The notes beneath the pieces were generated by a model. That model was not told the DNA's origin. It saw nothing but the letters and a program-made list of their open reading frames with translations, and ran no database searches. From the NCBI GenBank assembly GCA_963823555.1, contig CAWGMA010000004.1, forward strand, positions 256,001 through 320,000: a DNA stretch of 64,000 nucleotides, written 5' to 3'. The stretch comes from Candidatus Eiseniibacteriota bacterium. Its GTDB lineage: Bacteria; Eisenbacteria; RBG-16-71-46; CAVPCR01. The translations under genes and the position numbers were made by a program. Position 1 is the first letter of the stretch. Every line of letters begins with the position of its first letter. Below are positions 30,245 to 47,880 of the stretch, piece after piece.

Positions 30245-31354
30245 CTACTGCGGGAAGGAGGGTGGAGGGGTGTCCGCGTAACCCTCGCCCTCGAGGGCTC
30301 GCATGAAGGCGACGACGGCGTCCACCTCCTCGGGAGCCAGCCCGAGCGGGCGGATCTTGGGGCTCAGGTGTGGATTGGGCGTGCCGCCTCGGTTGTAGTG
30401 CTCGACCGTTTCGCGCAGGGTGAGGATGGAGCCGTCGTGCATGTAGGGGGCGTGCTTCGTCACCTCGCGCAAGGTCGGCGTCTTGAACGCTCCGATGTCT
30501 TCGGCCTGCCCGCTCACCTTGGCCCGGCCGGAATCGGCAAAGACCTGCGCCGCCGCGTTCCACCCGATGCCCAGGTTATGGAACTTGGAGTCGGCGAAGT
30601 TCCAGCCGACATGACACTGACTGCACTCCGCCTTGCCGAAGAAGAGCTCGGCTCCCTGCTGCGCCTGTTTCGACAGCGCCGACCGGTCGCCGTTCTCGAA
30701 ACGGTCCCAGGATGAGTTCCCGGAGAGCCGCGTCGCCTCGTAGGCTGCGATGGCCTCGGCCACCCGATCGATGTTGATCGCCTGATCGCCATAGACTTGA
30801 GCGAACACGCGCCTGTAGCCGGGGATATTCGCCACCACGTCGACCACGATGTCATGAGTCATCCCCATCTCGACCGGGTTCTCCATCGGGCCCTTCGCCT
30901 GCTCGATGAGCGATGTGGCTCTGCCATCCCAGAAGAACACATCGTAGAGCGGCCAGGCCCCGTTCAAGAAGGTCGGGGCCTTGCGCGAGCCGCGTTTCCC
31001 TCCGATCCCGGTCGAGACCGGTGTCGGCTCCGAGAAGGCGTGCTCCGGCCGGTGGCAGGTCGCGCAGGAGACCGTGCCATCGCTCGAGAGACGGGTGTCA
31101 TAGAAGAGCCAGCGTCCGAGCCGAACCTTCTCCGGCGTCACCGTGAAATCGAGCGTGGTGAAGTCGGCCGCAACCCCCAGGGGCGGAGTGGGTAAGGGGG
31201 CGACGGGACTGGCGGCTTCCCAGTTGCGTGCCGCCCGGTCCGGGGAGCGCCCACAGGCGATCCCAGCGAGTGTGATGGCGATCGCCAGCGGCATGAGCCC
31301 GCGGGCGGTGGCGGGGAGCCGCGTGCCCCACGGGATCGGCTCAACGCGAAACAT
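30245..31354 (-). CDS. Diheme cytochrome c peroxidase (bCCP/MauG family), probable lipoprotein
   Basis: LGRWLFYDTRLS, CATCH, FWDGRA.SL.EQA.GP..NP.EM, CSQCH, FKTPTLR, APYMHDG. Confidence 0.92.
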   Translation of the reverse strand: MFRVEPIPWGTRLPATARGLMPLAIAITLAGIACGRSPDRAARNWEAASPVAPLPTPPLGVAADFTTLDFTVTPEKVRLGRWLFYDTRLSSDGTVSCATCHRPEHAFSEPTPVSTGIGGKRGSRKAPTFLNGAWPLYDVFFWDGRATSLIEQAKGPMENPVEMGMTHDIVVDVVANIPGYRRVFAQVYGDQAINIDRVAEAIAAYEATRLSGNSSWDRFENGDRSALSKQAQQGAELFFGKAECSQCHVGWNFADSKFHNLGIGWNAAAQVFADSGRAKVSGQAEDIGAFKTPTLREVTKHAPYMHDGSILTLRETVEHYNRGGTPNPHLSPKIRPLGLAPEEVDAVVAFMRALEGEGYADTPPPSFPQ

Positions 31355-31398
31355 GCGTCCTCCATCGCCCGGTTCCCTCCGGGCGCTGCGGCCGGGAT

Positions 31399-32208
31399 CT
31401 ATCCGTAGGAGTGGTTGCCGGAGAGGATGATGTTGCCGATGAAGGAGAGCACCGTCATCAGGAAGCCGATGATGGACATCCAGGCGGCGCGCGTGCCGCG
31501 CCAGTCGCGCTGCAGGCGAGCGTGCAAGTAGCCCGTGTAGAAGAGCCAGATGATCAGCGATCCGACTTCCTTCGGGTCCCAGCTCCAGAAGGCTCCCCAG
31601 GCATTGTGAGCCCAGATCGCCCCGGCGAAGAGGGCGCCGATCGTGAACAGCGGGTACCCGATGGCAATGGCCCGGTAGTTGATCTCGTCGAGGAGTTCCG
31701 GCGAGGGCAGGCGCCGCTCGCCGCCACCCCCGATTCGCTGCGTCACGAGGTACATGACGCTCACGGCGAAGGCGACGGCGAAGGCTCCCTCACCCAGGGC
31801 GGCAAGCGAGACATGGATGGTGAGCCAGTAGCTCTGCAGCGCCGGGACGAGCTGCTGCGTGATGTCCTTGGGGAGCAGCGAGGCGGCGACGACGAGAGCG
31901 AAGACGAGCGGCGCCACGAAGACGCCAATGACGAGCTTGCGATAACGCCAGAGCAGAAGTCCGAAGGATACCACCGCCATCCATGACATTGCCGTCGCGT
32001 ACTCGAACATATTCGAGAGCGGGATGTGTCCGGCCAGGTTCCAGCGCATTCCGAGCCCGATGGTCTGGAATCCGCCTCCCACGAACAGGACGGCGGCGGC
32101 GATCCGCCCGAGGCCGATGTTCCGCAGGGCGAAGAAGCCGGTGAAGAGAACGAAGGCGGCCAGGTACAGCCACAGGCTGACGGTGAAGAGATGAACGTCC
32201 GGAGTCAT
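31399..32208 (-). CDS. ccsA: System II cytochrome c synthase CcsA/ResC
   Basis: PLSNMFE, PALQSYWLTIH, WWD-type motif GAIWAHNAWGAFWSWDPKE, YLHAR, C-terminal HSYG. Confidence 0.95.
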   Translation of the reverse strand: MTPDVHLFTVSLWLYLAAFVLFTGFFALRNIGLGRIAAAVLFVGGGFQTIGLGMRWNLAGHIPLSNMFEYATAMSWMAVVSFGLLLWRYRKLVIGVFVAPLVFALVVAASLLPKDITQQLVPALQSYWLTIHVSLAALGEGAFAVAFAVSVMYLVTQRIGGGGERRLPSPELLDEINYRAIAIGYPLFTIGALFAGAIWAHNAWGAFWSWDPKEVGSLIIWLFYTGYLHARLQRDWRGTRAAWMSIIGFLMTVLSFIGNIILSGNHSYG

Positions 32209-33557
32209 GCTGCCTTCCGCTGCTCGATGGTGGCCGCGACGGCCTTGGTGATGGATGCAAACTCACGCTTGAATGCATCGCGGTTGCCGCTCGATATTCC
32301 TGCGACGTACAGCGCGTCGGCATCGATCACGACCCAGAGCTTGCGGTGCGTGAGGTAGAAGGAGAAGACGAGACCGAGCGTGGCCACGGCGAAGCCGGCC
32401 CAGATGGGCGGACTTCCGGGGCTCGTGCGGGCCTGGAGCCCGGTGGCGTAGGCCGGCGCGACGCCGGCGAGGCGGAGGTCGTCGAGCTTGGAGTCGGCGT
32501 GCCCGAAATCGGGATGATGGAGGAAGAGCCACTGCCCCGCGACCGCCTCGTCGCCATCGTAGAGCACGAGGCGCGCCGCCGGGTTCCGCATCTCGTTCGA
32601 GGCCGAGATCACGCCCTCGGCCGTCATACGGAAATGCGACACGAAGTCGTCGACGGCGATCTCCCGGCCATCGGAAAGCCGCGTGCGCGTCTTGAAGGGC
32701 ACGGTCACCCGCTCCCCGCTGTCACCGGCAATGAGCTCGAGGCTCTGGAGCCGCCCAGGGAGAGCCCGGTACGAGGACTGATAGAAGCTCACTCCGTCGA
32801 TGCGGAGTGGATGATTGACCGAGATGGTCTGCGTGAATTGACCGCGGTCGGGGTCCGTCACATCGACGGTGGAGTTGTACTGCATGATCTCGCCGCGCGT
32901 GTTCTCCGGCACGTGGAAGCTCGCGAGGCGGATTCTGAAGTCCTTGCCCATGCCGGACCACTCCTGTCCCGGCTCCAGCCACACCCACTCCGAGCGGCCG
33001 AAGATCCCGCTCGCGATCCCGCCGAAGATGAGGAGCAGGAGTCCGACATGGGTCAGGTAGGGGCCGGTACGGGAGAGGCCGCCGCGGGATGCGGCGAGCG
33101 CCACCAAGTCACCACCAGGCGCCCGCCGCACCGCGAAGCCGCGCCGGCGGAGCGCCCTGCTGACATCGTCAGCATCGACACTCGCGCCGTCCGCGAGGGC
33201 CAGCCGCGCATGCTGCTTGAGGCTCATGAGCTCTGCCGGTGACCGCCGGAAGTGAAGACCGAGGGCGGTCTTCACGGTCACCCGGAGCCGGCTCACGCTG
33301 CATGCCACCAGGCTGGCAGAGAGGAGACCGAGCAGCGCGTGGAACCAGAACGACCGGAACGGCTGGAAGACTCCCAGCACGGCCAGGGTCTCATAGGTGC
33401 GATCTCCATACTGGGACCGGTAGTGCTCCTCGGCGCCATAGAACCCGACAGGGAACTTCTCGCCGAGGACGATGCCACCGATCGAGGCGATCGCCAGCGC
33501 AATGAGCAGGATGATGACGAACCTGGTCGAGTTGAGAGTCTTCCACAGCGTTTTCAA
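32205..33557 (-). CDS. resB: System II cytochrome c biogenesis protein ResB/CcsB
   Basis: N-terminal TM helices, FRSFWF, GPYLTHVGLL, ISVNHPL, FYQSSY, SPG.P.IWAG; ATGA overlap with ccsA. Confidence 0.9.
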   Translation of the reverse strand: MKTLWKTLNSTRFVIILLIALAIASIGGIVLGEKFPVGFYGAEEHYRSQYGDRTYETLAVLGVFQPFRSFWFHALLGLLSASLVACSVSRLRVTVKTALGLHFRRSPAELMSLKQHARLALADGASVDADDVSRALRRRGFAVRRAPGGDLVALAASRGGLSRTGPYLTHVGLLLLIFGGIASGIFGRSEWVWLEPGQEWSGMGKDFRIRLASFHVPENTRGEIMQYNSTVDVTDPDRGQFTQTISVNHPLRIDGVSFYQSSYRALPGRLQSLELIAGDSGERVTVPFKTRTRLSDGREIAVDDFVSHFRMTAEGVISASNEMRNPAARLVLYDGDEAVAGQWLFLHHPDFGHADSKLDDLRLAGVAPAYATGLQARTSPGSPPIWAGFAVATLGLVFSFYLTHRKLWVVIDADALYVAGISSGNRDAFKREFASITKAVAATIEQRKAA

Positions 33558-33619
33558 GCTGCCTGTCGCTCCGATGCGCCGGGTCCTTTGCTGCCCGGAT
33601 CAGGGTTTCGGTTGCTTGC

Positions 33620-34213
33620 TTACTTCTTCTTGGTCGGATCCGGATGCGCGACCTTGGCCACGTACTCGTCGTACTTGAAGCCCTTGAAGGTCGGGCTCTT
33701 CTCGTTGTGGCACTTGGTGCAGGCCGCGGCATCAGGAGTCACCAGACCGACCGCCTTGGCATCCTGCGTACCGGCAGCGATCGCCTTCATCACGCTCATC
33801 GGCGAGTAGGCGCTTCCCGGTCCATGGCAGGACTCGCAGGACACGCCCTCCTCCACCTTGAGCTTGGCCGAGGCACCGGTCGCAGCCGCCGTGGCATGGC
33901 ATGACAGGCACTCGGGCGACTCGTGGGCCGGCTTGGCCAGCTTCTTGTCGGTGGCGATGGTCACGGCCTTCTCGCCCTTGAGCGTCTCGAACGCCTTGGC
34001 GTGTGGGCTCTTCTGCCACGACTGGAACTGGCCACCCTTGGCTTCGGTCTTGTGGCACATGGCGCACTTCTGGGTGCCGATGTACTCGAACTTGACTTCG
34101 GCCTTCTCGGCCTTCGCCGGTTCCTCGCCGACGGCGGGAACAGGCGTGAACCAGAACGCCGCCAGCACGATGTACATCACGACACCCAGACCCAACAGGT
34201 AAGATGCTCTCAC
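33620..34213 (-). CDS. Exported tetraheme cytochrome c (c554-like)
   Basis: Signal peptide; CAMCH, CLSCH, CESCH, CTKCH; YIG...W..SPHA, GVSCESCHGPGS. Confidence 0.88.
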   Translation of the reverse strand: MRASYLLGLGVVMYIVLAAFWFTPVPAVGEEPAKAEKAEVKFEYIGTQKCAMCHKTEAKGGQFQSWQKSPHAKAFETLKGEKAVTIATDKKLAKPAHESPECLSCHATAAATGASAKLKVEEGVSCESCHGPGSAYSPMSVMKAIAAGTQDAKAVGLVTPDAAACTKCHNEKSPTFKGFKYDEYVAKVAHPDPTKKK

Positions 34214-34281
34214 CTTCAGTTACCTCCTCCTTAGCTCGGGGCCTTGCGGAACCCTCCGGCCCGGGTCTCAAGCCTGGCTGT

Positions 34282-34677
34282 TCAGCGCGCGGCCAGGCTG
34301 TCCTCCACCACCCAGCGCTCGACCAGCGCCACCTCATCCGGACTGGAGTAAAACGAGTTCATGCTACCACCCGGCCTCGACACGACAAGCAGAAGGCAAT
34401 CCGGGTCACCGGCGATGGCGTTCGGTGTGCCATCCAACCCATTCCCCATGATCTCCTCCAGCGTTGTCATGCCGTACTGAGCCGCCGGGTTGGCTCCACT
34501 GTGACACGAGACGCATCTCGCGTCGAAGATGGGCTTTATGTCGGCCTCGTAGGTCACCCGCTCGGGCGGGGCAGGCGTGGCCGGCAACTCCCGCCGCTCG
34601 GCGCACCCCTCGGTCAGGGCCGCCGCGGCCAGGAGGATCAAGAGGCTTATACCCCGGAACGCTCGGCACCGCTCCAT
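34282..34677 (-). CDS. Monoheme cytochrome c lipoprotein
   Basis: Lipobox-like LTEGC, VTYEADIKPIF..RCVSCH, distal GSM, ERWV. GGGAGG RBS; start MERC (34677). Confidence 0.78.
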   Translation of the reverse strand: MERCRAFRGISLLILLAAAALTEGCAERRELPATPAPPERVTYEADIKPIFDARCVSCHSGANPAAQYGMTTLEEIMGNGLDGTPNAIAGDPDCLLLVVSRPGGSMNSFYSSPDEVALVERWVVEDSLAAR

Positions 34678-34679
34678 GG

Positions 34680-35903
34680 CTAGTCCCCTCCCTTGGGGCC
34701 GTGGCAGTAGCTGCAGAAGCCTGGTGATGAATACGCCGACGGTGTGTGGCAGGCGTAGCATGTGGCCTGACGATCGTTGTGCCATGGCCCGTGGACGCTC
34801 CGCATGTATCCAGGCTCGTGAGTCCGCGGATCGTTGCCGCGCCCCAGCTGGCGGTCCATGTGACAGGCGAGGCAGACCGGATCTTCGCCCTGCACATCAT
34901 GACAGGCCGCGCAGTTCTCGATGTCGCGCCGGGCCAGCTGCCCGTGTCGTCCACCGCCGGTGCCCACGCCGCCGGAGACCGCACCCCAGTCCGCTCCGCC
35001 GTGCCACTCGGGCTTCTGACCGCCCAGGATCTTCTCCGTGCGATGGCATTCGGCGCAGAACGTGGCTGGTTCGTGGCAGCTCTGGCAGTCCTTCTCCTTG
35101 CCGCGGGCATCGAGGCCGTGCTGGTACACGTAGTCGAGGTCGTGCACCCGCTCGAGCACCATCGGCTGGCCTTGCTTGGCCGCGTTCGGGGCATAGGGCG
35201 CGTAGTGATCCGCGGGCTTCCCCCCGGCGCGGGCCAGCACGGCTCCCTCGTGACATTCCTGGCAATCGGTCACGCCGGCTGCGCGTGCTCCGTGACACAT
35301 GGTGCAGTTCGCGGCACCGGCGCTGGCGAAATCCTTGTGGCGGTGGAGCCAGTCCTGCGTGTGCGATTCCGGCCGCAGATCAGCCGAGGCCGCATGGCAG
35401 ATCTCGCAGTTTCCCGCCGCCTGGTTCCCGTCGTGACACTCGGCGCAAGTGGCCATCGTCGGCAGCTGCGCCGCACCGGCGTAGTCGACCTCGGCCATGC
35501 CGGCGTGGCAGCGGTCACAGGTCAGCCCCTTTCCGATGTGCAGCTCATGGCTGAAGAAGATCGAGCGCTCGGCGGGCGCGAAGGCCGTGTAGTCGGGCCC
35601 GCTCTCCTTGTGGCAGAACGAGCACTCGGTCGAGCTCTCATCGTGACAGGCGTAGCAGGTCTGCATGTTGCCGAGGTGGTTGTCGGATGCCTTCTGGCTC
35701 GACTCGATTCCACCGTGGCAGCTCGAGCAATCGGCGCCGACATCGACGAGGTGCTTCTGGTGCGAGAAGTGGATGAGCGCGCTCTCATCCTGGGAACTGG
35801 TCCAGCTCCCAGCGCCGACCATGCCGGCGAGAACGAGCAACACGATCACCACGAGGCCGATCACGGCGTGGCGCCGCATCTGGATCCGGTGGTCATGTTC
35901 CAT
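34680..35903 (-). CDS. 14-heme periplasmic cytochrome c (c3/c7-type repeats)
   Basis: Counted 14 CxxCH: CSSCH, CYACH, CSFCH, CDRCH, CAECH, CEICH, CTMCH, CQECH, CQSCH, CAECH, CAACH, CLACH, CYACH, CSYCH; FSH..H c7 motifs; N-terminal signal/anchor. Confidence 0.92.
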   Translation of the reverse strand: MEHDHRIQMRRHAVIGLVVIVLLVLAGMVGAGSWTSSQDESALIHFSHQKHLVDVGADCSSCHGGIESSQKASDNHLGNMQTCYACHDESSTECSFCHKESGPDYTAFAPAERSIFFSHELHIGKGLTCDRCHAGMAEVDYAGAAQLPTMATCAECHDGNQAAGNCEICHAASADLRPESHTQDWLHRHKDFASAGAANCTMCHGARAAGVTDCQECHEGAVLARAGGKPADHYAPYAPNAAKQGQPMVLERVHDLDYVYQHGLDARGKEKDCQSCHEPATFCAECHRTEKILGGQKPEWHGGADWGAVSGGVGTGGGRHGQLARRDIENCAACHDVQGEDPVCLACHMDRQLGRGNDPRTHEPGYMRSVHGPWHNDRQATCYACHTPSAYSSPGFCSYCHGPKGGD

Positions 35904-37240
35904 CAGAACACCCCCGTGACGTTACGCCCGGCGAAGAACCAGTACGTGATGCGGGCATGACCGCGCCAGTCGTGCGTGTATCCGGTGAAGTCGGGCAGGG
36001 TGTGCAGGTCCTGGCTCAGGTTCTGGATTTCGACATCGAAGGATAGCGTTCGCATCGGGCGCAGCTCGCCGCCGAAGCTCAAGACGATCGATTCGTCCCG
36101 ATCGTCCTGGCCCTCGAACACCTCGAAGCTCGTGTAGCCGGCTTCGACCCGGGCCGAGCCCATCTCGGAGAACTGATGCCGGTAGGCGCCGGTCACCGCA
36201 TCCGACGCTCCCGTGTAGCCCATCCGGTGCGCGTAGTTCACGCTCCATGGACCACGCCCCGCACCTACTCCAAAGTACTGCCCGGAATCATCATCGAGGA
36301 ACGTGGATGAGAAATGGCCGAAGGCGCGCACCTCGGGAGTCACCACGTAGCTCGCCCGCACGCCGAACTCGTCGAAATCAGACTGAGTGAAGACGCTGAA
36401 GAGCGAGTTGGCGTAGATCGAGGGCGCGCGATGGAAGTACTCGAAATCGGCGGTCCATTTCTCTCCCGGGAGTGCCACGTTGAGCGCCCCGCTGGCGACC
36501 TTGAGACGCCACTCGGGAAGACGATCCACCTCCACCCGGCCGTACACCGTCGATCCCTGACGCCAGCCCCACGCCACGTCCGCTCCGTAAAGCTCTTCCT
36601 GGCCGTCGGGAAGAACGAGGAGTTCGTTGGTGTACTCCCCCGGCTCCTCGTACTCGAACGACTCGCGGTTGCGCCGGGCGAAGCTCACGGCGGTGGTCAG
36701 GTTCTGGGGCTGGTGAAAGGTGAGGCGGCCGCCGTAGGCTCGATTCTCCCAGCCCTGGACCTTGAAGTCTCCGGTCAGTGGAGCCTGGGCGCCGGCGAAG
36801 AGCTCGAGGGTGGCCAGGTTGCGGAAGCGGTAGCTCCCGAAGCCGCCGTCGATGAGCGTGTTGCCGACGCCGGCGAACACCCGCATGCGGCCCCCGCGGA
36901 GCTCGTAGGCGTGCCGCCGATCCTTCCACTGCGCGTAGAGATTCGTGACCCGGTAGTCCGAGGCGTCATGGTTCACGGTAGCCACGTCCTGGTGGCCACT
37001 CATGTAGGTATGGAGAGAGAAACGCGGGTCGCCAAGGCCCTCGAGATGGAAGATCCCCAGGGCCTGGGCCCGCATGTAGTCGAAGCTCGTCGAATCGGTT
37101 GGCGCACGGTCATAGCGGTAGAACGAGGTCGTGATGCGCCCGTGAAAGGTCTGCCCGCTGGCCGCCGGCGCGAGGAAGGCAACGATCGCGATCGATGCTG
37201 CCAGGCCGGTGCAGAGGGGGATGCGCGCAGAAGGGTTCAT
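35903..37240 (-). CDS. Outer-membrane beta-barrel protein, putative porin of a porin-cytochrome conduit
   Basis: GGAGGAGG RBS, cleavable signal peptide, aromatic-rich alternating beta-strand pattern throughout, C-terminal Phe, TGATG coupling to the 14-heme gene. Confidence 0.75.
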   Translation of the reverse strand: MNPSARIPLCTGLAASIAIVAFLAPAASGQTFHGRITTSFYRYDRAPTDSTSFDYMRAQALGIFHLEGLGDPRFSLHTYMSGHQDVATVNHDASDYRVTNLYAQWKDRRHAYELRGGRMRVFAGVGNTLIDGGFGSYRFRNLATLELFAGAQAPLTGDFKVQGWENRAYGGRLTFHQPQNLTTAVSFARRNRESFEYEEPGEYTNELLVLPDGQEELYGADVAWGWRQGSTVYGRVEVDRLPEWRLKVASGALNVALPGEKWTADFEYFHRAPSIYANSLFSVFTQSDFDEFGVRASYVVTPEVRAFGHFSSTFLDDDSGQYFGVGAGRGPWSVNYAHRMGYTGASDAVTGAYRHQFSEMGSARVEAGYTSFEVFEGQDDRDESIVLSFGGELRPMRTLSFDVEIQNLSQDLHTLPDFTGYTHDWRGHARITYWFFAGRNVTGVF

Positions 37241-37442
37241 GACCTCCTCCATGGCCCGGGCGCATTCCGGCCCAAAGATGGCTTCCCAGCTTGGGTGAGA
37301 TTGCCCGGGACGAGACTCCTCAGCGCTGACGCAAGAAGGATGCAGCCCGAGCCTGTGGACCTTCGATACGTATATTACTTGATCATTTAAAGAGTTAGCT
37401 ATTTGAGTGGAGACCCGGTGATGATTGGGTTATCTGCAAGCC

Positions 37443-37548
37443 CGACATTTTGTCGACGCACGTGCCCGCCAGCCGTGACATATTGCCCGGAATGATGGGT
37501 CTGAGGCCGCCGTGACTTCCAAGCAGGGCAGGCTTGACAAATTGTCGG
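37443..37548. promoter_or_regulatory. Three GACA-N3-TGTC palindromic boxes, candidate activator (bEBP) binding sites
   Basis: CGACATTTTGTCG (37443-55), GACATATTGCC (37477-87, one mismatch), GACAAATTGTCGG (37536-48), midway between the divergent operons. Confidence 0.55.
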
Positions 37549-37647
37549 TTGGCTCCGAGACGTCCTGCGGTCTTGTCCGGCGGTTCCCCATCATGAAACG
37601 GAGCTGGACCGCCCTCCGGGCAACGGTGGATAACTTAACATTATATT

Positions 37648-37660
37648 TATCAATCGGTTA
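37648..37660 (+). promoter_or_regulatory. IHF binding site
   Basis: TATCAATCGGTTA matches WATCAANNNNTTR exactly, preceded by an AT-rich tract in otherwise GC-rich DNA. Confidence 0.6.
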
Positions 37661-37697
37661 GATCATTGATCAGGAACCTCTTCGCGGGACAGGTGGG

Positions 37698-37713
37698 CGG
37701 CACGCAGGGTGCA
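37698..37713 (+). promoter_or_regulatory. Sigma-54 (-24/-12) promoter for the right-hand cytochrome operon
   Basis: CGGCACGCAGGGTGCA = GG-N10-GC with GGCACG core, about 40 bp downstream of the IHF site and about 110 bp upstream of the ATG. Confidence 0.62.
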
Positions 37714-37820
37714 ATTGACCAGGAGGCTAGCCCCGGATGGGGCGGCGCATGTCTCGGACTCGACCGATCCGCTGGCCACCTGGTCAAGCGGGAAGCTGCT
37801 AACGGAGGGAGGTCGCGATA

Positions 37821-39503
37821 ATGACGCGAAAGTTCCGTCCATTCGCCCATCTTCTCCTGGCGGTCCTGGCGGCCACGACAGTGGCCATGTTCAGCGGCTG
37901 CGAGGATGACGATGACAATGTCGTGGTTCCGGAACCTGCGATCTCGGTCACGGTTTCCGCCTCATCCGACACGCTCAGAGGCGGAGGGACAGTGACCCTT
38001 ATCGCATCGGCCACGACCTCGGACGCGGCGGGGGACCTCACGTACAGCTGGTCGTCTACCGCAGGCTCGTTCTCCAGCACCTCAGAAGACACCACCACGT
38101 GGACCGGGCCCGAGACGGCCGGGATGTATGACATCTCCTGCATCGTGACCGATGGGAAGAACGCCGGGATCGGTACCAAGACTCTCGGCGTGGATACCTA
38201 CATGCCAGCGGATAGTCCCTTCTATCGCGGTGCGACCTACTGCCAGGGCTGCCATGACGGCGGTTCGGGCGGTGATCAGTACGCGACGTGGGAAATGACC
38301 GGGCATGCCAACGCCTGGGAGACCCTGAACGCGATCGGCCAGGGCCGGAACAATGTCTGCCTGCCGTGCCACACCGTGGGGTCGGTGGGGACCAACGCCG
38401 ATCCGGACCTCAACAACGGCGGTTATGACGAGACCGCGGTGGCGAGGCTCCAGGGTGTGCAGTGCGAGAACTGCCACGGCCCCGGCAGCGCCCATCCGGG
38501 CGACTTCGCCTCGGTGGACGTGGCGCTGGAAGCCGACCTGTGCGGTGCCTGCCACAATGGAGCTCATCACCCGACGTTCGACGAGTGGTCGGGGTCGCCG
38601 CATGCCAGCGTCATCGAGTCGGCGGCGCTCCGTGGCTCTTGTTCCAAGTGCCACAACGGGCTCGTCGCGGTCAACTACCTCGATGCTCCGCAGGGATTCC
38701 CGAATCCTCCGGATCCCACCGAGACGTTGCCCTTCACCTGCGCGGTTTGCCACGACCCGCACGGCAACGAGAACAATGCCTATCTGCGGAACGCTGCGGC
38801 CACCGATGTCGTCCTTCCCGACGGCACCGTGGTGCCCGAGGCGGGCGCGGGCCGGCTCTGCATGTCGTGCCACAACGGGCGGCGGACGCCGGAGAACATC
38901 GAGGACCAGATTGCGAACGGTAGCTCGCACTTCGGGCCTCACCACTCCGTGCAGGGCGACATGCTCGCCGGCACCGGCGCCTACGAGGATGTCCAGCCCG
39001 GATTCCCGTGGACCTCGAGCCGGCACCTGGCGGTGCGCGACGGCTGCGTCCATTGCCACACGCACGGGCACGAGGGTGAAGAGGTCTACACCGGACACGG
39101 CTTCCTGCCGACGGTCGAGGCCTGCGCAGAGTGCCATGGTCCGATCACGGACTTCACCGAGATCATTGCCAAGCAGGACTACGACGGCAACGGCCAGATC
39201 GAAGGCGTGCAGCTGGAGATCACCGGGCTCCTCGGGATCCTCAAGCAGGCGATCGTGGATGCCAGCTTGACGCCTGGCGCTGCCGATTCCCTCGCCAACG
39301 CGGAGGATTTCTCGGCGGCCGTCGGGGACACGCTGATCACGACGGTCGAGCAGCGGGAGGCCGGTTACAACTACTTCTTCGTCGACTTCGACGGATCGCA
39401 TGGCGTGCACAACACGACCTACGCGATCCAGCTCCTGCAGCAGAGCACGCTCGCGATCGCACCCGGGAAGTTGCCACCGGGGGCGTACATCCTGCGTGAC
39501 TGA
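37821..39503 (+). CDS. 9-heme cytochrome c lipoprotein with N-terminal Ig-like domain (candidate cell-surface terminal reductase)
   Basis: GGAGG RBS; lipobox FSGC followed by EDDDDN; CQGCH, CLPCH, CENCH, CGACH, CSKCH, CAVCH, CMSCH, CVHCH, CAECH; C-terminal helical region with DGSHGVHN. Confidence 0.88.
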   Translation: MTRKFRPFAHLLLAVLAATTVAMFSGCEDDDDNVVVPEPAISVTVSASSDTLRGGGTVTLIASATTSDAAGDLTYSWSSTAGSFSSTSEDTTTWTGPETAGMYDISCIVTDGKNAGIGTKTLGVDTYMPADSPFYRGATYCQGCHDGGSGGDQYATWEMTGHANAWETLNAIGQGRNNVCLPCHTVGSVGTNADPDLNNGGYDETAVARLQGVQCENCHGPGSAHPGDFASVDVALEADLCGACHNGAHHPTFDEWSGSPHASVIESAALRGSCSKCHNGLVAVNYLDAPQGFPNPPDPTETLPFTCAVCHDPHGNENNAYLRNAAATDVVLPDGTVVPEAGAGRLCMSCHNGRRTPENIEDQIANGSSHFGPHHSVQGDMLAGTGAYEDVQPGFPWTSSRHLAVRDGCVHCHTHGHEGEEVYTGHGFLPTVEACAECHGPITDFTEIIAKQDYDGNGQIEGVQLEITGLLGILKQAIVDASLTPGAADSLANAEDFSAAVGDTLITTVEQREAGYNYFFVDFDGSHGVHNTTYAIQLLQQSTLAIAPGKLPPGAYILRD

Positions 39504-39529
39504 TGCCTGACGGGACGGCGCGCGGTTTG

Positions 39530-39645
39530 GGCGCGGTCGCTCCTTCGAGCGACCGCGCCTCGCCCCCCGGCGCCGACGACACTCCGGGGCCCTATCCGCG
39601 TCGGAGCTCGAGCCCAGTCTCACCGCGGAGCTGGGCTCGGGCTCC
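39530..39645 (+). other. Two strong intergenic hairpins after the 9-heme gene (mRNA stabiliser/attenuator candidates)
   Basis: GGCGCGGTCGCTC-cttc-GAGCGACCGCGCC (39530-59) and GGAGCTCGAGCCCAG...CTGGGCTCGGGCTCC (39603-45). Confidence 0.5.
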
Positions 39646-39716
39646 CGCTGTTAATGGGGCTCCTTCGCAGAGATTAGAACGCGCAGAGAGATGAGAAAGA
39701 GGAGAGAGGAGAGACG

Positions 39717-41159
39717 ATGAGCGTGTTCCGGCCGTTCAAGTCCCTGCTGGGTGGGTTCCGGGATCTGATGAGCCATGCCTCACGCCACCCGATCGGGCTC
39801 ATGGGCGCCAATCTCATCTTCTTCTCGGTTCTCCTCTTCATCTTCTTCCTGGCGGTCGAGCTCATTGGTATCGAGACCAATCCCTACATCGGAATCCTCG
39901 CCTATCTCGTGCTGCCCGGCCTGTTCGTCGCCGGCATCATCCTGGTGTTCGTTGGCCGCGGGCTGTACAGGCGGCAGAAGGTGGCCGCTGGACGACCTGC
40001 CTTCACCATCATTGACCTGAACCGCCCCGATCATCGGCAGCGGCTCAACGCGGTGCTCATCGTCAGTGTGCTCTGTCTCCTGGTTCTCGGGGTCGCTGGC
40101 TTCCAGGCCGTGCACTACATGGATTCGAGCGAATTCTGTGGGCTCGTGTGCCACAAGGTCATGATCCCCGAGTTCACCGCCTACGAGGCTTCGCCACACG
40201 CCCGCGTCGAGTGCGTCGATTGCCATATCGGTCCAGGCGCCGGCTGGTTCGTCAAGTCGAAGCTCTCGGGACTGCGCCAGGTGGCGGCTGTCACGTTCAA
40301 TACGTACCACCGGCCGCTGCCGAACCCCGTGCACAATCTGCGCCCGGCGCGCGAGACCTGCGAGCAGTGCCACTGGCCGGCCAAGTTCCACGGCGACCGG
40401 GTCAAGGTGAAGAAGAGCTACGCGCCGGATCATGACAACACGGAGCTGACCACGGTTCTGCTGCTGAAAGTGGGGGGTGGCAGCCTCGAATCGGGTTTCG
40501 CCGAGGGTATTCACTGGCACATGAACCTGGCGAACCGCATCGAGTACATTGCCGATTCGACGCGCACGGATATCTACTGGGTGGGGGTGACGAATCAGGG
40601 CGGTGATGTGACCGAGTACACCAAGGACGGGATCGATTTCGATCCCAAGACTCGCCCCGAGCTCGAACGGCGAGTGCTCGACTGCATGGACTGCCATAAC
40701 CGCCCCACGCATGCCTTTGAACAGCCCAACAAGGCCGTCGATCATGCCATCTGGTCCGGGGCCATCCCGCGCGATCTACCTTACATCCGCCGGGAGTCAG
40801 AACGCGTACTGACCACGGAGTACCCGGACCGGAAGACTGGTTTCGCGACGATTGCCGCGGAGATCGAGGCCTTCTACCGCGATTCGGAGCCCGGACAAGA
40901 TCCGGAAAAGGTCGCTCGAGCGGTGGAGAATCTGCAGGCCATCTACGGCCGCAACATCTTTCCGGAGATGAAGGTGACCTGGGGGACCTACCCCAACCAC
41001 ATCGGTCACGAGACGTCTCCGGGCTGCTTCCGCTGTCACGATGAACAGCACACCAGTTCCGACGGGCAGACGATCAGTCAGGAATGCTCCAACTGCCACC
41101 ATCTGCTGGCCATCGAGGAATCGAACCCCGAGATCCTGGATCGCCTGTACGCCGAGTGA
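39717..41159 (+). CDS. Inner-membrane NapC/NirT-family multiheme quinol dehydrogenase, ImcH-like
   Basis: Three N-terminal TM helices with NPYIGIL; CGLVCH (CX3CH), CVDCH, CEQCH, CMDCH, CFRCH, CSNCH; LRPARETCEQCHWP.KF.GD, GIHWH, NIFPEMKVTWGTYPNHIGH. Confidence 0.87.
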   Translation: MSVFRPFKSLLGGFRDLMSHASRHPIGLMGANLIFFSVLLFIFFLAVELIGIETNPYIGILAYLVLPGLFVAGIILVFVGRGLYRRQKVAAGRPAFTIIDLNRPDHRQRLNAVLIVSVLCLLVLGVAGFQAVHYMDSSEFCGLVCHKVMIPEFTAYEASPHARVECVDCHIGPGAGWFVKSKLSGLRQVAAVTFNTYHRPLPNPVHNLRPARETCEQCHWPAKFHGDRVKVKKSYAPDHDNTELTTVLLLKVGGGSLESGFAEGIHWHMNLANRIEYIADSTRTDIYWVGVTNQGGDVTEYTKDGIDFDPKTRPELERRVLDCMDCHNRPTHAFEQPNKAVDHAIWSGAIPRDLPYIRRESERVLTTEYPDRKTGFATIAAEIEAFYRDSEPGQDPEKVARAVENLQAIYGRNIFPEMKVTWGTYPNHIGHETSPGCFRCHDEQHTSSDGQTISQECSNCHHLLAIEESNPEILDRLYAE

Positions 41160-41182
41160 TGCGCTTGAGCGAGGAGAGGGCC

Positions 41183-43264
41183 ATGGGCTGGAACATGAGG
41201 TCGGGTAGGCGCCGCACGCGCACTGGGGAGAGGTCGGTGGAGGTCGGGCGCAAGTCCCCGCTGGCCCTCCTGCTCGTTCTTGCCGCCATGCTCTGGGCCG
41301 GTGCGGTGGGGGGGCAGCCGGCCAGCGATGACTGCCTCATGTGTCACGGTGAGCAGGGTCTCACCGGTGCCAATGCCGCCGGCCAGGAGATCTCGATCTA
41401 CGTCGATCCCGTGCTCTACTCGAACTCAGTGCATGGCGGCTTTTCCTGCGTCGATTGCCATTCCGGGGTGCCGGTCGAGCACGACCCCGATCTCGGCGCG
41501 GTCAGCTGCGCGACGTGTCATGAGGACATCGATCATGAGGTGCGGGCGAGCGATCACGGCAACGGCAATCACCGCCTCGGGGCCGGAGCCTGCACCATGT
41601 GCCATGGAGACGCGCATCAGATCCTGCCGGCGAGCGATCCGAACTCGCTGATGCACAAGACGAAGATGCCCCAGCAGTGCGCGACCTGCCATGAGAGCAA
41701 GACCCCGCCCCCGGTGGCCATGGGACATCCGATCACGGCCTATGCGCTCACGGTTCACGGTCTGGCCATCCTGGAGAGGGGCAATCTCGATGCGGCGAGC
41801 TGCACCGATTGCCATGGCGCCCACCACATCACGAAGGCTGCAAAACCGGATTCACCGGTGAATCGCTTCAACATCGAGAACACCTGCGGCAAGTGCCACG
41901 GCACCGTGGCCGAGGCCTACGCCAACAGCATCCATGGCGTGGCCCTGGCCCGCGGCGTCAGCGAATCCGCAGCGTGCACCGATTGCCACGGCGAGCACAC
42001 CATCCTCGCCCACACCGATCCTCACTCCTCGGTGTTCGCCACGGCGATCTCGACCGAGACCTGCGCTCGGTGTCATGCTGCCGAGCGGCTCACCTCCAAG
42101 CTGGGGATACCGGACCGCCGGGTCGAGAGCTACCAGCAGAGCTACCACGGGCTGGCCTCCGAGGCCGGGAAGACGACGGTCGCCAACTGCTCGAGCTGCC
42201 ATGGCGTGCACGACATCCTGCCCTCGAGCGATCCCCGCTCCTCGACCTACCAGGCCAACTTGCCGGGGACCTGCGGCAAGTGCCATCCGGGGGTTTCGCA
42301 GGCCACGTTCACCGGGCTCACGGTGCATGCCGGGCCCGAGGACTCGGTCCCCATCATCCGCTGGGTCGTGCTCTTCTACCAGATCGCGATCCCCGTCATC
42401 ATCGGCGGCATGCTCCTCCACCACGCGCTCGACTTCGGGCGCAAGTTCAAGCGCCACGTGGCCCGCGAGCGGTTGACGCGCTCCTTCCTGCGTTGGAGCG
42501 GGGGAGAGCGTCTGGAGCACCTCTTCCTGCTCGTCTCCTTCATCGCGCTGGCGTACTCCGGCTTCGCCATCAAGTGGCCCAAGGAGTTCTGGGCCGCGCC
42601 GTTCCAGTGGCTGGGCGGGGAAGGGTTCCGCGGCAACTTCCACCGCGTCTTCGCCGCGATCTTCATCATCCTGAGCTTCGAGCACACGATCCGCGTGATC
42701 CTGAAGCCCCGCGGACGGCGGCTCATTGCCGGACTGGCCTTCCGGATCAACGATATCCAGCATGCGCTCGGATTCATGCGGGGCAAGGTGCCTTCGATGC
42801 ATGCGCAGGATCCAAGCGGCTTCAGCTACGTGGCCAAGGCCGAGTACTGGGCGCTGGTCTGGGGTGGCGTGGTGATGTCGGTGACGGGCTTGCTCCTCGT
42901 CTTCCAGGACTGGACACTCGCCAACCTGCCGTCCTGGGTTCCTGATTTTGCGACCTACGTTCACTACTACGAGGCAGTGCTGGCAACGCTCGCCATCATC
43001 GTCTGGCATTTCTACTCGGTGATCTTCGACCCCGATGTCTATCCGCTCGACACGGCGATGCTGTCGGGGAAGGTGCATGCCGCTGGGCACGGGGCGGGAC
43101 ATGGCTCTGGTCACGGAGCCGCAAAGACGCCGTCCGGCCCGAATGTTCCAGCGGATTCCAGGCCGGCCGAGGGAGCGGGGCGGCCGGGAGCGGATGGCGA
43201 TGGTGGCGCGGGGTCGAGCCCGGGTGCCGCGCGGGAGACCCGGGCCCCGAGCCGACACGGATGA
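41183..43264 (+). CDS. CbcL-like fusion: 11-heme c-type domain + FdnI/HydC-type cytochrome b membrane domain
   Basis: 11 CxxCH counted; SY..SYHG repeats; cytochrome b His residues (RLEH, NFHR, YVHYYEA, VWHFY); KAEYWALVWG. Start uncertain (41159/41183/41237). Confidence 0.88.
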   Translation: MGWNMRSGRRRTRTGERSVEVGRKSPLALLLVLAAMLWAGAVGGQPASDDCLMCHGEQGLTGANAAGQEISIYVDPVLYSNSVHGGFSCVDCHSGVPVEHDPDLGAVSCATCHEDIDHEVRASDHGNGNHRLGAGACTMCHGDAHQILPASDPNSLMHKTKMPQQCATCHESKTPPPVAMGHPITAYALTVHGLAILERGNLDAASCTDCHGAHHITKAAKPDSPVNRFNIENTCGKCHGTVAEAYANSIHGVALARGVSESAACTDCHGEHTILAHTDPHSSVFATAISTETCARCHAAERLTSKLGIPDRRVESYQQSYHGLASEAGKTTVANCSSCHGVHDILPSSDPRSSTYQANLPGTCGKCHPGVSQATFTGLTVHAGPEDSVPIIRWVVLFYQIAIPVIIGGMLLHHALDFGRKFKRHVARERLTRSFLRWSGGERLEHLFLLVSFIALAYSGFAIKWPKEFWAAPFQWLGGEGFRGNFHRVFAAIFIILSFEHTIRVILKPRGRRLIAGLAFRINDIQHALGFMRGKVPSMHAQDPSGFSYVAKAEYWALVWGGVVMSVTGLLLVFQDWTLANLPSWVPDFATYVHYYEAVLATLAIIVWHFYSVIFDPDVYPLDTAMLSGKVHAAGHGAGHGSGHGAAKTPSGPNVPADSRPAEGAGRPGADGDGGAGSSPGAARETRAPSRHG

Positions 43265-43311
43265 TCCCCTCGAGAGAGATGAGTTCGGGCCGCAAACGGA
43301 GGACGCGCGGG

Positions 43312-46203
43312 ATGTCAGGCAACTTACGACGCTTGCTGGCGGCGGCAGGCCGGCTTGCGGGGCGGCGGGCGGGGCTCGTCGTTGCGATCGGCGTCGCCCT
43401 CGGGATCGCTCTCCTCATGGCCGGAGCCGATCTGGGCGGGCTCGGCGGGGGCGCGGCGCCGGCCTCGGCGCAGAGCGAGAAGCCGCTGCCTCCAGGGGCC
43501 GAGGCCTGCATCGATTGCCACGAGGCAGGCCGGCCCGGCCGTCGCGTGGCCGGGGAGCCGCCGCGATTCGACCCGGCCGCCATCCTCGCTTCGCCGCATT
43601 CCGGGCTCGATTGCACCGATTGCCACCAAGATCTGGCCGGCGCCGAGATGCCGCACGCCGAGGAGCTATCTCCCGTGGCGTGCGCCATGTGCCACGACCA
43701 GATCCAGACCCAGTTCGAGGAGAGCCTGCACGGAGTCGCCGCCAACCGGGGCGACCCGCTGGCTCCGACCTGTGCGACGTGCCACGGCAAGCACGACATC
43801 CGCCGCGCTTCGGATCCCGATGCCATGACCGCGGTCATCAACGTTCCGCTCCTGTGTGGTCGCTGTCATCACGAAGGGAGTCCGGTCTCGCTCACTCACT
43901 CCATCCCGCAGGACTCGATCCTCGAGAATTACTCGGAGTCGATCCACGGCGAGGGCCTCTTCAAGCAGGGTCTCGTGGTCACTGCCGTGTGCACGAGCTG
44001 TCACACGGCACACCATGTGCTGCCCCACACGGATCCACGGTCTTCGATTTCCCGCGGCAAGATCGCCGATACCTGTACCCAGTGCCACGGGCAGATCGAG
44101 GAGGTTCACCGCAAGGTGATCCGCGGCGAGCTCTGGGAGAAGCAGCCGCACATGATTCCGGCCTGTGTCGACTGCCACTCCCCGCACAAGGTGCGCAAGG
44201 TGTTCTACACCCAGGGACTCGCGGATCGCGACTGCATGCGCTGCCATGCACGCAGCGATCTGGCCTCGGCGACGGGCCTCGAGGCCGCGGATCTCCACGT
44301 CAATACGCACGAACTTGCCGGCTCGCGGCATGCCAAAGTGGCTTGCGTGCAGTGCCATACCGACTGCACGCCCTCGCGCGAGCGCGCCTGTGAGACCGTT
44401 ATCGAGCGCGTGGACTGTTCGATCTGCCACAATGAGGTCGTCGAGGAATACAAGGGGAGCACGGCATGGGCAGCTGGCCAGCGAGGGCAGCCCCGATGCT
44501 CCGGACTGCCGCGATTGCCACGGCACCCACGGCACGCTCGGCAAGACCGATTCCAAGTCGCCGATCTTCTCCCGCAACATTCCCGCTCTCTGCGGTCGCT
44601 GTCACCGGGTGGGGGAGAAGGCGGCCGTGCGGTACCAGGGGCACGAGACCGAGGTGGTCGAACACTATACCGAGTCGATCCACGGCAAGGGGCTCCTGGA
44701 GAGCGGGCTCACGGTCACCGCAACCTGTGCCAACTGCCACACCGCACACGGCGAGCTGCCGGCGAGCGATCCGACCTCGACTGTGAACCGAGCGAACATC
44801 GCCGAGACCTGCGCGCAGTGTCACCGGGGAATCTACGAGCTCTTCACCGCAAGCATCCACTCGGCAGACTGTGACCAAGACCGACAAGAAGCTGCCCGAT
44901 CTGTAGCGATTGTCACTCGGCCCACACGATCCGCCGCACCGACATCACCGATTTCCAGCTCCACATCATGGATCAGTGCGGCAACTGCCACGAGGACATC
45001 GCCGAGACCTACTTCGACACCTATCACGGCAAGGTGTCGAAGCTCGGGCTACGTGAAGACGGCCAAGTGCTACGACTGCCACGGGGCGCACGACATCCTT
45101 CCGGTCTGGAACCCCAGATCGCACCTGAGCCGTGAAAACATCGTCGAGACCTGTGCGCAATGTCATCCCGGCTCGAATCGCCGGTTCGCCGGCTATCTGA
45201 CCCACGCCACGCACCACGACCAGCACAAGTACCCGTTTCTCTTCTACGCCTTCTGGGGCATGACCGCTCTGCTCGCCGGAACCCTGAGCTTGGCTGGGAT
45301 GCACACGCTGGCCTGGCTGCCGCGCTCGCTCCAGTACCGGAAGAAGCTGAAGCAGGCTCACGCCGAAGACAAGAGCAAGACCTATGTGCGTCGCTTCCCG
45401 CCCTTCTACTCGAAGCTGCATCTGATGGTGATCGTGAGCTTCTTCGCCCTCGCGCTCACCGGAATGACGCTCAAGTTCTCCTACACGGACTGGGCGCGGG
45501 TGATGGCGCGGCTCTTCGGCGGCTTCGAGGCGGCCGGCTTCATCCACCGCGTCGCCGCCGTCATCACCTTCGCCTACTTCGCGCTCCATGTCTTCGATCT
45601 CATCAAGAGCAAGCGCAAGGCGGCGGGTGGGCTGGGCAAGCTCTTGCTCGGCCCCAACAGCATGCTGCCGACCCTCAACGATTTCCGCGAGTTCGTGCAG
45701 ATCCTACGCTGGTTCATCGGGATCGGGCCCGCGGCCCAACTACGGGCGCTGGACCTACTGGGAGAAGTTCGACTACTTCGCCGTGTTCTGGGGGGTGGCG
45801 ATGATCGGCACGACCGGGCTCCTGCTCTGGTTCCCCGAGTTCTTCACCCGCCTGATCCCCGGCTGGGTGCTGAACGTGGCCACCATCATCCACAGCGACG
45901 AGGCCCTGCTCGCGGTCGGCTTCATCTTCACCATCCACTTCTTCAACACGCACTTCCGCCCGGAGAAGTTCCCCATGGACACCGGTGATCTTCACCGGGC
46001 TGGTGCCGCTCGAGGAGTTCAAGCTGGACCGCCCGCGCGAGTACGCGGAGCTCGAGGCCTCGGGCCGTCTCGAGAGCCTGCTCGAGTCGGGGCCGGACCC
46101 GAAGACGGTTCGCAGGTGGCGCATCTTCGGATTCACGGCGCTCGCGATCGGGATCTCGCTGATCGGCCTGATCCTCTACGCCGCGATCTTCGCCTATCGG
46201 TAG
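43312..46203 (+). CDS. Second, larger CbcL-like c+b cytochrome (19 CxxCH, about 961 aa), split by six +1 frameshifts that are probably sequencing errors
   Basis: Removing one base near 44463, 44864, 44896, 45047, 45729 and 45983 gives one continuous ORF joining track ORFs 43261, 44165, 45588 and 45985; [34 protein letters not shown] cytochrome b motifs. Confidence 0.82.
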
Positions 46204-47428: not shown

Positions 47429-47880
47429 GACGTCTCCCTGATGGTGCGCGGCCGCATGCTCTCGAGCGAGTGGGGGAGCCCCGCCACGAAAGCGCGGATC
47501 TCGTCGCGCACCCGCCGGTAGTGATCGAGGGCCTTTTCCTCGTCGATCTCGTCCCGGGCAAGCGCCGGTGGGTCATCGAAACCGACATGAACCACGCGTG
47601 TGGCTCGCGGAAAGGACGGGCAGTGCTCGTCGGCATGCCCGCAGACCGTGACCACCCAGTCGAACTCGATCGCCGCCACCTCATCGAAGTGCTTGGCGCG
47701 CTGCCCCGAGATGTCGATCCCGGCCTCGGCCATGACGCGGACCGCACGGGGATCCAGCCGGCCGGGAGCGACGCCGGCGGAATGGGCGGCGATCCGCTCG
47801 CCATGCAGGTGGCGGGCGAGACCCTCGGCCATCTGGCTGCGGCAGGAATTGCCGGTGCAGAGGAAGAGGACCGTGAGCAT
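47425..47880 (-). CDS. arsC: Thioredoxin-dependent arsenate reductase (LMW-PTP fold)
   Basis: [37 protein letters not shown]; coupled to acr3. Confidence 0.92.

Follow-up and report, generated by a model that had tools for sequence, protein, structure and literature searches.

An eleven-gene cluster in Candidatus Eisenbacteria suggests a protein wire that links inner membrane and cell surface

What would a run of eleven genes carrying 66 c-heme motifs do for a bacterium of the uncultured phylum Candidatus Eisenbacteria? The genes lie at positions 30245-46203 of the window, the 64,000-nucleotide stretch that was analysed (positions 256,001 to 320,000 of contig CAWGMA010000004.1, assembly GCA_963823555.1), in a genome of 4.62 Mb in 4 contigs that is 92.5% complete. 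Their products suggest that the cluster encodes a protein wire joining the inner membrane to the surface, and that its hosts, degraders of organic matter, use minerals or humic substances as respiratory electron acceptors. It is judged probable, with real doubt left, that electrons flow outward to acceptors beyond the cell, for example oxides of Fe(III)/Mn(IV) or humic quinones.

The eleven contiguous genes form two divergent arms with a 568-bp spacer between them, the left arm of seven genes on the minus strand and the right arm of four on the plus:

30245..31354, minus strand: diheme cytochrome c peroxidase/MauG-family protein with a lipobox-like N-terminus, 2 CXXCH (PF03150 E 1e-53; 79% identity in G001, a genome of the same genus)
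31399..32208, minus strand: CcsA/ResC-type protein of system II cytochrome c maturation (TIGR03144 231 bits, cut-off 188)
32205..33557, minus strand: ResB-type protein of system II maturation (PF05140 E 7e-73)
33620..34213, minus strand: tetraheme c554-like cytochrome with a signal peptide, 4 CXXCH (PF13435 E 3e-17)
34282..34677, minus strand: monoheme lipoprotein cytochrome, one CXXCH and a lipobox-like Cys
34680..35903, minus strand: 14-heme c7/c3-type cytochrome, 407 aa, 14 CXXCH, with a hydrophobic segment at the N-terminus; the barrel's constant partner in gene order
35903..37252, minus strand: predicted outer-membrane beta-barrel, 449 aa, 22 strands, plugless (AlphaFold2 pLDDT 81)
37821..39503, plus strand: nonaheme lipoprotein, 560 aa, whose N-terminal PKD/Ig stalk carries a heme domain of the OcwA/OmhA type, 9 heme motifs (phmmer to 6I5B E 5.6e-11)
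39717..41159, plus strand: ImcH-type quinol oxidase, 480 aa, 6 heme motifs (5 CXXCH and one CX3CH; NapC/NirT domain PF03264 over cut-off)
41183..43264, plus strand: CbcL/MtrH/MtoC-type protein, 11 c-hemes fused to a cytochrome b domain (PF01292 44.6 bits, cut-off 30.1; start uncertain)
43261..46203, plus strand: second CbcL/MtrH-type protein, 19 c-hemes and cytochrome b, with six +1 frame breaks in the assembly

The clustering of heme motifs is far beyond chance, because no open reading frame (ORF) elsewhere in the window has two or more CXXCH motifs. An earlier sequence-only reading of the window had counted the same eleven genes, two divergent arms and 66 motifs, and a recount reproduced these numbers. 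The beta-barrel and the system II maturation genes that it named were also recovered (the 22-strand model; the TIGR03144 and PF05140 matches). Its guess at an Eisenbacteria-type host agrees with the assignment of the genome and with the 644 homologs found for the nonaheme protein, the named ones of which come from Eisenbacteria and Krumholzibacteria. Its word 'island' was loose: the cluster is real, but a recent mobile island was rejected. The cluster genes have a GC content of 0.625-0.677 vs 0.67 for the genome, no tRNA genes were found in the window, and G001 carries all eleven genes at ~57-93% identity, with order and flanks identical in arrangement. An Rfam scan of 26000-50000 gave no matches.

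How would electrons cross the outer membrane? The barrel matched no Pfam or NCBIfam family, and no PDB sequence at E<=1. In Foldseek and VIA-align comparisons its model resembled outer-membrane barrels generally, with MtrB among many ties (Z 15.4, rmsd (root-mean-square deviation) 7.2). Two structural features of porin-cytochrome (Pcc) conduits could be checked. One is an outer-membrane barrel of 18-22 strands, and the model has 22; the other is a neighbouring gene whose product is a periplasmic cytochrome with 5-14 hemes, and the one here has 14. Judged by these features, the locus would work like a Pcc conduit. Binding between the barrel and the cytochrome would follow from their gene pairing and from analogy. 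Membership in the MtrCAB/MtoAB/PioAB systems was rejected, since the barrel has no MtrB/PioB family match and 22 rather than 28 strands, and the 14-heme protein has no TIGR03508 match. An ActA-like identity of the 14-heme protein was also rejected; its PDB matches span only the first 160-200 residues and were read as shared c7-type heme repeats.

Further evidence for a barrel-cytochrome unit comes from its distribution. A barrel profile matched 26 of 206 genomes of the phylum in 20 of 83 genera (one match, in G010, was weak at E 4e-6), and it matched 689 clusters (50% identity) at E<=1e-10. Synteny was sampled in 20 of the 26 barrel regions (G072 and G010 were not included, and G000, G001, G005 and G055 were examined apart), six of the 20 being cut short by contig ends. 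In all 20, an 11-13-heme homolog of the 14-heme cytochrome followed the barrel. Within ~10 kb of the barrel there was an ImcH-type gene in 12 regions, a CbcL-type gene in 10, either of these in 13, a nonaheme gene in 10 and a tetraheme gene in 11. The barrel, its partner, ImcH, CbcL and the nonaheme protein occurred together in 5 of the 20, in shuffled gene order. Only the pair was found nearby in G005, and the pair plus a 7-heme fragment in G055. Among 22 metagenome loci (GC 0.39-0.69), one of which is assigned to KSB1, the pair was present in 17 and the other five were short contigs; the nonaheme gene was added in 8, a CbcL-type gene in 5 and ImcH in 2 near-identical loci. The barrel match in L017 reached 68%.

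Trees of the barrel and of its partner share a deep split that places G000, G001 and G005 with KSB1-type loci and twelve other Eisenbacteria apart, so the two proteins appear to co-evolve and the phylum to hold at least two lineages of the pair. Both trees were midpoint-rooted and the cytochrome tree was built in quick mode. Alignments A4/A5 and the trees exclude loci L073, L074, L076, L079, L080, L084, L086 and L087 (shorter cytochrome match) and L089 (partial barrel), and alignment A3 excludes L025, which contains stops. A separate observation concerns L029 (12366-19622), in which a 2419-aa lipoprotein-like cytochrome with 66 CXXCH directly follows the barrel and a 13-heme partner and is itself followed by a CbcL-type gene.

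The inner membrane is represented by two kinds of candidate quinol oxidoreductases. ImcH has been defined by three N-terminal transmembrane helices, an adjoining CX3CH, 5-9 CX2CH and a NapC/NirT domain (PMC6295460). The protein encoded at 39717..41159 has three N-terminal hydrophobic segments with the CX3CH adjoining them, besides the domain and motifs listed above. In comparison with solved chains it had no ImcH match, and the best match was NrfH at E 6e-4. Homologs occur in 44 of the 206 genomes. ImcH has been implicated solely in quinol oxidation and tied to reducers only (PMC6295460). The CbcL/MtrH/MtoC proteins were described as having 3-23 N-terminal c-hemes and a cytochrome b domain of 4-6 helices (PMC6295460). 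Both of the last two genes agree with this description (11 and 19 hemes; PF01292 and TIGR01583 matches), and the 11-heme product has five hydrophobic segments downstream of the signal. The family is also marked by three conserved b-heme histidines; the cytochrome b histidines of the two paralogs line up with one another in a comparison made between these two proteins.

Is the last gene intact? In the assembly its 19 hemes fall as 11+6+2 across three open frames, with frame changes at about 44463, 44870, 44901, 45046, 45731 and 45982. The breaks are most likely assembly errors, because intact homologs match the pieces, short-read contigs lack one base at several breaks, and other genes of the assembly are likewise split. 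L077 and L081 carry intact 19-heme homologs, to which the pieces are 49-90% identical as far as the stop at 46203 and 62-90% identical past the first break. One base fewer was seen in short-read contigs at 44901 and 45046 (X1), 45731 (X4) and 45980-45984 (X1, X3), in a check that consisted of single contigs, mostly of low depth, and covered the last four of the six breaks. Elsewhere run X1 was identical to the window over 348-667-base pieces. In the same assembly, cytochrome oxidase subunit I (C1:552981-554217) is in 8 pieces and a hydrogenase (C3:343454-345012) in 3. A counterpoint to assembly error is that G001 has the 19-heme gene broken too, though at different positions. In other words, the assembly has patches of dense single-base errors that defeat ordinary gene calling.

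The nonaheme lipoprotein is the candidate surface terminal reductase. Its model (pLDDT 88) retrieved OcwA and OmhA at Foldseek ranks 1-3 (E 8e-8 to 1e-6, TM-score 0.38-0.48), and a profile comparison placed it with the OcwA/OmhA type at E 2e-20. Nine CXXCH were present in 71 of 72 homologs, as was the lipobox Cys27 (71/72). Two His-His pairs are conserved in OcwA/OmhA (PMC9250108). The corresponding pairs here, H249/H250 and H374/H375 after hemes 4 and 7, were kept in 71, 70, 72 and 66 of the 72 homologs; they were equated with OcwA H281/282 and H380/381 by heme order and motifs, not by full-length alignment. An NrfA/ONR nitrite reductase was rejected, since CXXCK was found in none of the 72 homologs and the fold search puts OcwA first, although NrfA variants with CXXCH exist (PMC9250108). 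Iron oxide is among the acceptors of OcwA, which can also exchange electrons with electrodes (PMC6703420), and surface reductases of this type are described as very poorly represented in RefSeq (PMC9250108). This protein and the monoheme cytochrome are the two lipoprotein cytochromes that the locus encodes.

How might the nonaheme protein reach the surface? Acidic residues follow the Cys in 50 of the 53 homologs with a detected lipobox. Such residues recall the surface-export signal of Bacteroidota lipoproteins, which is taken as a lead only. Multiheme cytochromes with FlgD-type or T9SS (type IX secretion system) C-terminal sorting domains, including a nonaheme homolog, were seen in L023 (5021-7795) and L030 (3887-6457 and 6857-8299). 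To judge by their tails, these proteins would be secreted to the surface by a route unlike that of the lipoprotein of this locus.

The remaining left-arm products would have carrier or accessory functions. The tetraheme cytochrome is likely a periplasmic carrier. The monoheme protein matched PccH and PSCyt1 weakly and under cut-off; in L023 and L026 its counterpart is the N-terminal portion of an 11-heme protein. The diheme peroxidase is presumably accessory, with a role in peroxide defence; MauG and MbnH were rejected as its identity, since scores fell below the NCBIfam cut-offs (249.5 vs 443.85 and 229.5 vs 362.85). The CcsA/ResC gene is one of 4 PF01578 matches in the genome, which holds three further cytochrome maturation genes elsewhere. 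The peroxidase and CcsA/ResB genes were found in none of the 20 other Eisenbacteria regions, and on this comparison they are add-ons of this genus.

The spacer between the arms carries conserved sites that would serve a sigma-54 promoter system:

37329..37344, minus strand: conserved 16-bp block, identical in G001, a possible non-canonical sigma-54 promoter of the left arm (uncertain, with T for the consensus G at -25)
37444..37546, no strand assigned: three GACA-N3-TGYC boxes (37444, 37477, 37536), candidate enhancers for both arms, conserved in G001 and L018
37648..37660, plus strand: integration host factor (IHF) consensus site, the sole exact match in the window (in 7 of 100 shuffles an exact match turned up somewhere)
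37698..37713, plus strand: sigma-54-like -24/-12 promoter of the right arm, the sole window match with a slightly relaxed pattern, kept in G001, L018 and L021

The sigma-54 and IHF consensuses are those which we take to be standard, and the box motif and the one-base relaxation of the promoter were chosen after the alignment with G001 had been seen. L018 and L021 retain boxes and promoter, and L022 retains one box. A scan for sigma-70 promoters found 0 vs 2.1 expected. A box triple within 150 bp occurs only once in the genome, at this locus. A perfect palindrome 80-300 bp upstream accompanies 4 of the 354 sigma-54-like sites of the genome, where ~0.7 would be estimated by chance from site density. 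The four sites belong to this locus, a second cytochrome locus on C2 (kept in G001), a sigma-54 response regulator and a DUF2207 gene. The promoter layout is a trait of the sub-lineage, because no sigma-54-like site with an upstream palindrome was found in 20 regions from other families. From these sequence features we infer that both arms are co-regulated.

Which protein would act at these sites? The genome encodes RpoN. The response regulator, on the minus strand of C3 (119332-120885; L118:9332-10885), has its own upstream sigma-54-like site and GACA-N3-TGTC palindrome, and is a candidate for a self-regulated activator of both cytochrome loci. Sigma-54 regulators also flank L023, L030 and L031.

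The second cytochrome locus lies on the minus strand of C2 at ~493000-503400 (L009), is intact in G001 (L090, L091) and has the same promoter layout. It encodes an NHL beta-propeller protein, two hexaheme cytochromes, a 539-aa barrel-like protein, two lipoproteins and a 42-heme cytochrome with doubled CXXCH. By gene content it resembles nanowire loci, which carry a barrel and a beta-propeller (PMC13712944). Its hexaheme cytochrome had no match to OmcS at E<=1, and another search gave E 0.21 for a fragment. Homologs of the first hexaheme occur in 62 of the 206 genomes, ~2-3 kb from an ImcH-type gene in G043, G047 and G055.

These parts can be assembled into a model of electron export. Oxidation of organic matter would yield menaquinol, to be oxidised at the inner membrane by the ImcH-type or either CbcL-type protein. 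By analogy with Geobacter, ImcH- and CbcL-type entry points would serve acceptors of different potential, and the three entry points therefore suggest a range of acceptors. From there the periplasmic heme chains of the quinol oxidases and the tetraheme carrier would lead the electrons on to the 14-heme cytochrome, pictured as threading the 22-strand barrel. Outside, the nonaheme lipoprotein on its Ig-like stalk would hand them to the acceptor. CcsA/ResB could supply extra heme-attachment capacity. A sigma-54 activator at the central boxes might turn on both arms, and probably also the nanowire-like locus.

Other readings of the same genes have to be weighed against this model. An unlikely one keeps the outward chain and makes a partner cell the acceptor, that is, direct interspecies transfer to methanogens or syntrophs with the nanowire-like locus for long-range contact. 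The second locus, with its beta-propeller, two hexahemes, barrel-like protein and 42-heme cytochrome behind the same promoter layout, favours it, and a wetland transcriptome preprint (10.1101/2024.02.06.579222) links Eisenbacteria activity to methane levels. However, the sequence cannot tell it from mineral reduction, the hexaheme is without a significant OmcS match, and OcwA and OmhA stem from mineral or electrode reducers (PMC9250108). It is quite unlikely that the nonaheme protein is instead an enzyme acting on nitrite, hydroxylamine, sulfur or selenite, and the whole cluster a module for reducing such a soluble or semi-soluble substrate. The missing CXXCK and a fold closest to OcwA/OmhA rather than NrfA, ONR or MccA argue against it, as does the absence of the nonaheme gene from 10 of the 20 regions that keep the barrel pair; a cytochrome-filled barrel would also be needless for a soluble substrate. 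The case for such a module is that the sulfite reductase MccA belongs to the OcwA clade, all members of which are described as reducing nitrite or NO in vitro (PMC9250108), that one nonaheme homolog was automatically named nitrite reductase, and that Pcc clusters occur in S0 and selenate respirers (PMC4245776).

The chain might also run inward, from Fe(II), reduced humics or a cathode through the conduit to the quinone via a CbcL/MtoC-type protein and on to O2 or an oxyanion. This direction is rather improbable. The genome does hold a heme-copper oxidase, a bd oxidase and a dimethyl sulfoxide (DMSO)-reductase type II/NarG-like module that could draw electrons inward. No RuBisCO, no ACS and no Cyc2-type motif, searched with what we take to be the Cyc2 pattern, was found in the 92.5% complete genome. 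MtoC homologs of CbcL stand beside mtoAB in Fe(II) oxidisers (PMC6295460) and Cyc2 has been reported in hydrothermal Eisenbacteria metagenome-assembled genomes (MAGs; PMC9769843), but ImcH is tied to reducers, and as of 2014 no pcc cluster was known from any Fe(II) oxidiser (PMC4245776). The sequence-only reading had held that direction cannot be read from sequence. In part this no longer stands, because ImcH, the OcwA-type protein and the lack of RuBisCO/ACS matches tilt the chain outward. A last proposal, that two unrelated operons happen to adjoin and the right arm has decayed in part, is very improbable and has largely been refuted. It could appeal to the divergence of the arms and to the 19-heme gene, which is broken in both genomes of the genus. 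Genes of both arms run co-oriented in a single run in G069, G071 and G016, among others; the broken gene keeps its high identity to intact homologs past the first break; and the split oxidase and hydrogenase genes and the short-read contigs without the extra base at four breaks speak against decay.

Several points nevertheless weigh against export to minerals or humic matter. The case for it is built on sequence and structural models. The likeness of the nonaheme protein to OcwA is distant (21-22% identity, TM-score 0.42-0.48), and OcwA itself also reduces nitrite, slowly, and hydroxylamine (PMC6703420). CbcL/MtrH/MtoC homologs occur in both reducers and oxidisers with no distinguishing feature described (PMC6295460). 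Some organisms that have Pcc clusters, for example Ignavibacterium album, are said to reduce neither Fe(III) nor Mn(IV) oxides (PMC4245776). Seven of the 20 sampled regions lack a nearby inner-membrane partner, some of them being cut by contig ends, and in G001 the 19-heme gene is broken too. The O2 reductases and the molybdoenzyme named above count here as well. The wetland preprint names Eisenbacteria among iron reducers, which favours export, but its available text does not name the genes behind that label.

How does the cluster compare with known systems? In Geobacter, ImcH, CbcL and the porin-cytochrome conduits are encoded at separate loci. Geobacter sulfurreducens, in which ImcH serves high- and CbcL intermediate-potential acceptors, shares the architecture of both quinol oxidase types and the layered logic with Om(abc)B/Ext conduits (PMC13591261). 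It differs in heme number (7 in ImcH vs 6 here; 9 in CbcL vs 11 and 19 here) and in its PpcA-type trihemes, in place of which a c554-type tetraheme is found here. The porin and cytochrome IALB_1839/IALB_1838 of I. album (Shi et al. 2014, PMC4245776) offer a close parallel: a barrel within 18-22 strands adjoins a periplasmic multiheme cytochrome (400 aa and 14 hemes there, 407 aa and 14 hemes here), porin and cytochrome co-evolve, and extra cytochromes lie nearby. Likened by description, the two pairs may belong to the same family. In contrast to I. album, for which the available text lists only a periplasmic extra cytochrome, the locus here includes ImcH, two CbcL-type proteins, an OcwA-type lipoprotein and maturation genes.

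A cluster of Rhodoferax ferrireducens combines two cymA, mtrH and mtrABC (Zhong and Shi 2018, PMC6295460), and so, like the present one, has two quinol oxidase kinds, a barrel, and periplasmic and surface cytochromes at one locus. The barrel and its partner are of other families here (no MtrB/PioB or DmsE match), with ImcH instead of CymA, and the 2018 survey found no mtrAB/mtoAB beside imcH. OcwA (Thermincola potens, 6I5B) and OmhA (Carboxydothermus ferrireducens, 6QVM) share with the nonaheme protein nine hemes, a c554-like N-terminal module, a C-terminal three-helix bundle, two His-His pairs in the same inter-heme order and the lack of CXXCK (PMC6703420, PMC9250108). However, they are cell-wall proteins of Gram-positive thermophiles, whereas the protein here, at ~22% identity, is a lipoprotein of a two-membrane cell, bears a PKD/Ig stalk and is encoded together with a porin conduit.

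The main claim of the sequence-only reading was that every layer of an electron transfer chain sits in one co-regulated locus. The layers were borne out: the ImcH-like and CbcL-like inner-membrane proteins by Pfam domains, hydrophobic segments and agreement with published definitions, the outer-membrane barrel by the predicted plugless fold and its outer-membrane fold matches, and the surface cytochrome, as a candidate, by the OcwA fold of the nonaheme lipoprotein. Co-regulation gained support from the spacer. The supposed novelty of a chain at a single locus did not hold, since Rhodoferax mtr and Pcc clusters, including ones with associated inner-membrane cytochromes (PMC4245776), are already known; the cluster varies a known design rather than founding a new one. 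The lineage, called unexpected, proved only partly so. No export system was found described for the phylum, but Eisenbacteria had been flagged as an iron-cycling taxon by FeGenie (PMC8478452), besides the wetland preprint. Porin-cytochrome clusters are known from Ignavibacteria and Acidobacteria MAGs (PMC7399161), and a related phylum was described with multiheme cytochromes (PMC11323493). A literature search that covered few subscription papers found no earlier description of the cluster, no porin conduit with an OcwA-type protein next to it and no mention of the shared promoter layout. None of three findings that could have overturned the claim emerged: no known orthologous cluster in a metal reducer, no sign that the barrel lies outside the outer membrane, and no grouping of the cytochromes with nitrite or sulfur reductases.

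If export is correct, the cluster shows concretely how a phylum without a described export system in the literature searched could respire iron or humic matter, and it offers genes that mark this ability. It would also extend the OcwA/OmhA type, so far known only from Gram-positive cell walls, to two-membrane bacteria, and place ImcH next to a porin conduit. Family-based annotation misses the barrel, which has no Pfam or NCBIfam model despite its 689 clusters. Compact, and equipped with maturation genes of its own and a candidate regulator, the locus lends itself to expression in a laboratory host. A bolder proposal is tentative, and more doubtful than export itself. It holds that Eisenbacteria are widespread, overlooked electroactive heterotrophs with an unnamed porin family and an OcwA-type reductase, and that in this genus one sigma-54 activator co-induces the conduit and the nanowire locus, giving a two-locus export regulon as complete as that of Geobacter but made of other parts.

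The rest of the genome provides the respiratory setting. It encodes futalosine menaquinone genes, which speak for the export reading, and NiFe hydrogenases besides the two oxidases, and a six-frame census found 37 ORF pieces with at least two CXXCH. This gene content fits a versatile respiring heterotroph. The molybdoenzyme module lies at C1 ~825000-834000 (L011) and consists of a b-type cytochrome, a 7-heme cytochrome and the DMSO-reductase type II/NarG-like enzyme with its Fe-S subunit, all below family cut-offs. At C4:98719-103357 (L010), a cytochrome b6-like domain is fused to 9 c-hemes beside a 5-heme ExtKL-like cytochrome, and the fusion is possibly another quinol oxidoreductase. A 6-heme protein with a T9SS/FlgD-type sorting tail is encoded at C1:989784-992657 (L012).

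Within the window, genes for a secreted M4-type peptidase with an FlgD-type tail and a prolyl oligopeptidase (19095-26980) are in line with peptide degradation. On the other side, genes for an Acr3 arsenite exporter and an ArsC-type arsenate reductase (46214-47880, minus strand) adjoin the right arm. Reduction of iron oxides releases arsenic. G001 keeps arsC, and Acr3 was not matched at the corresponding place.

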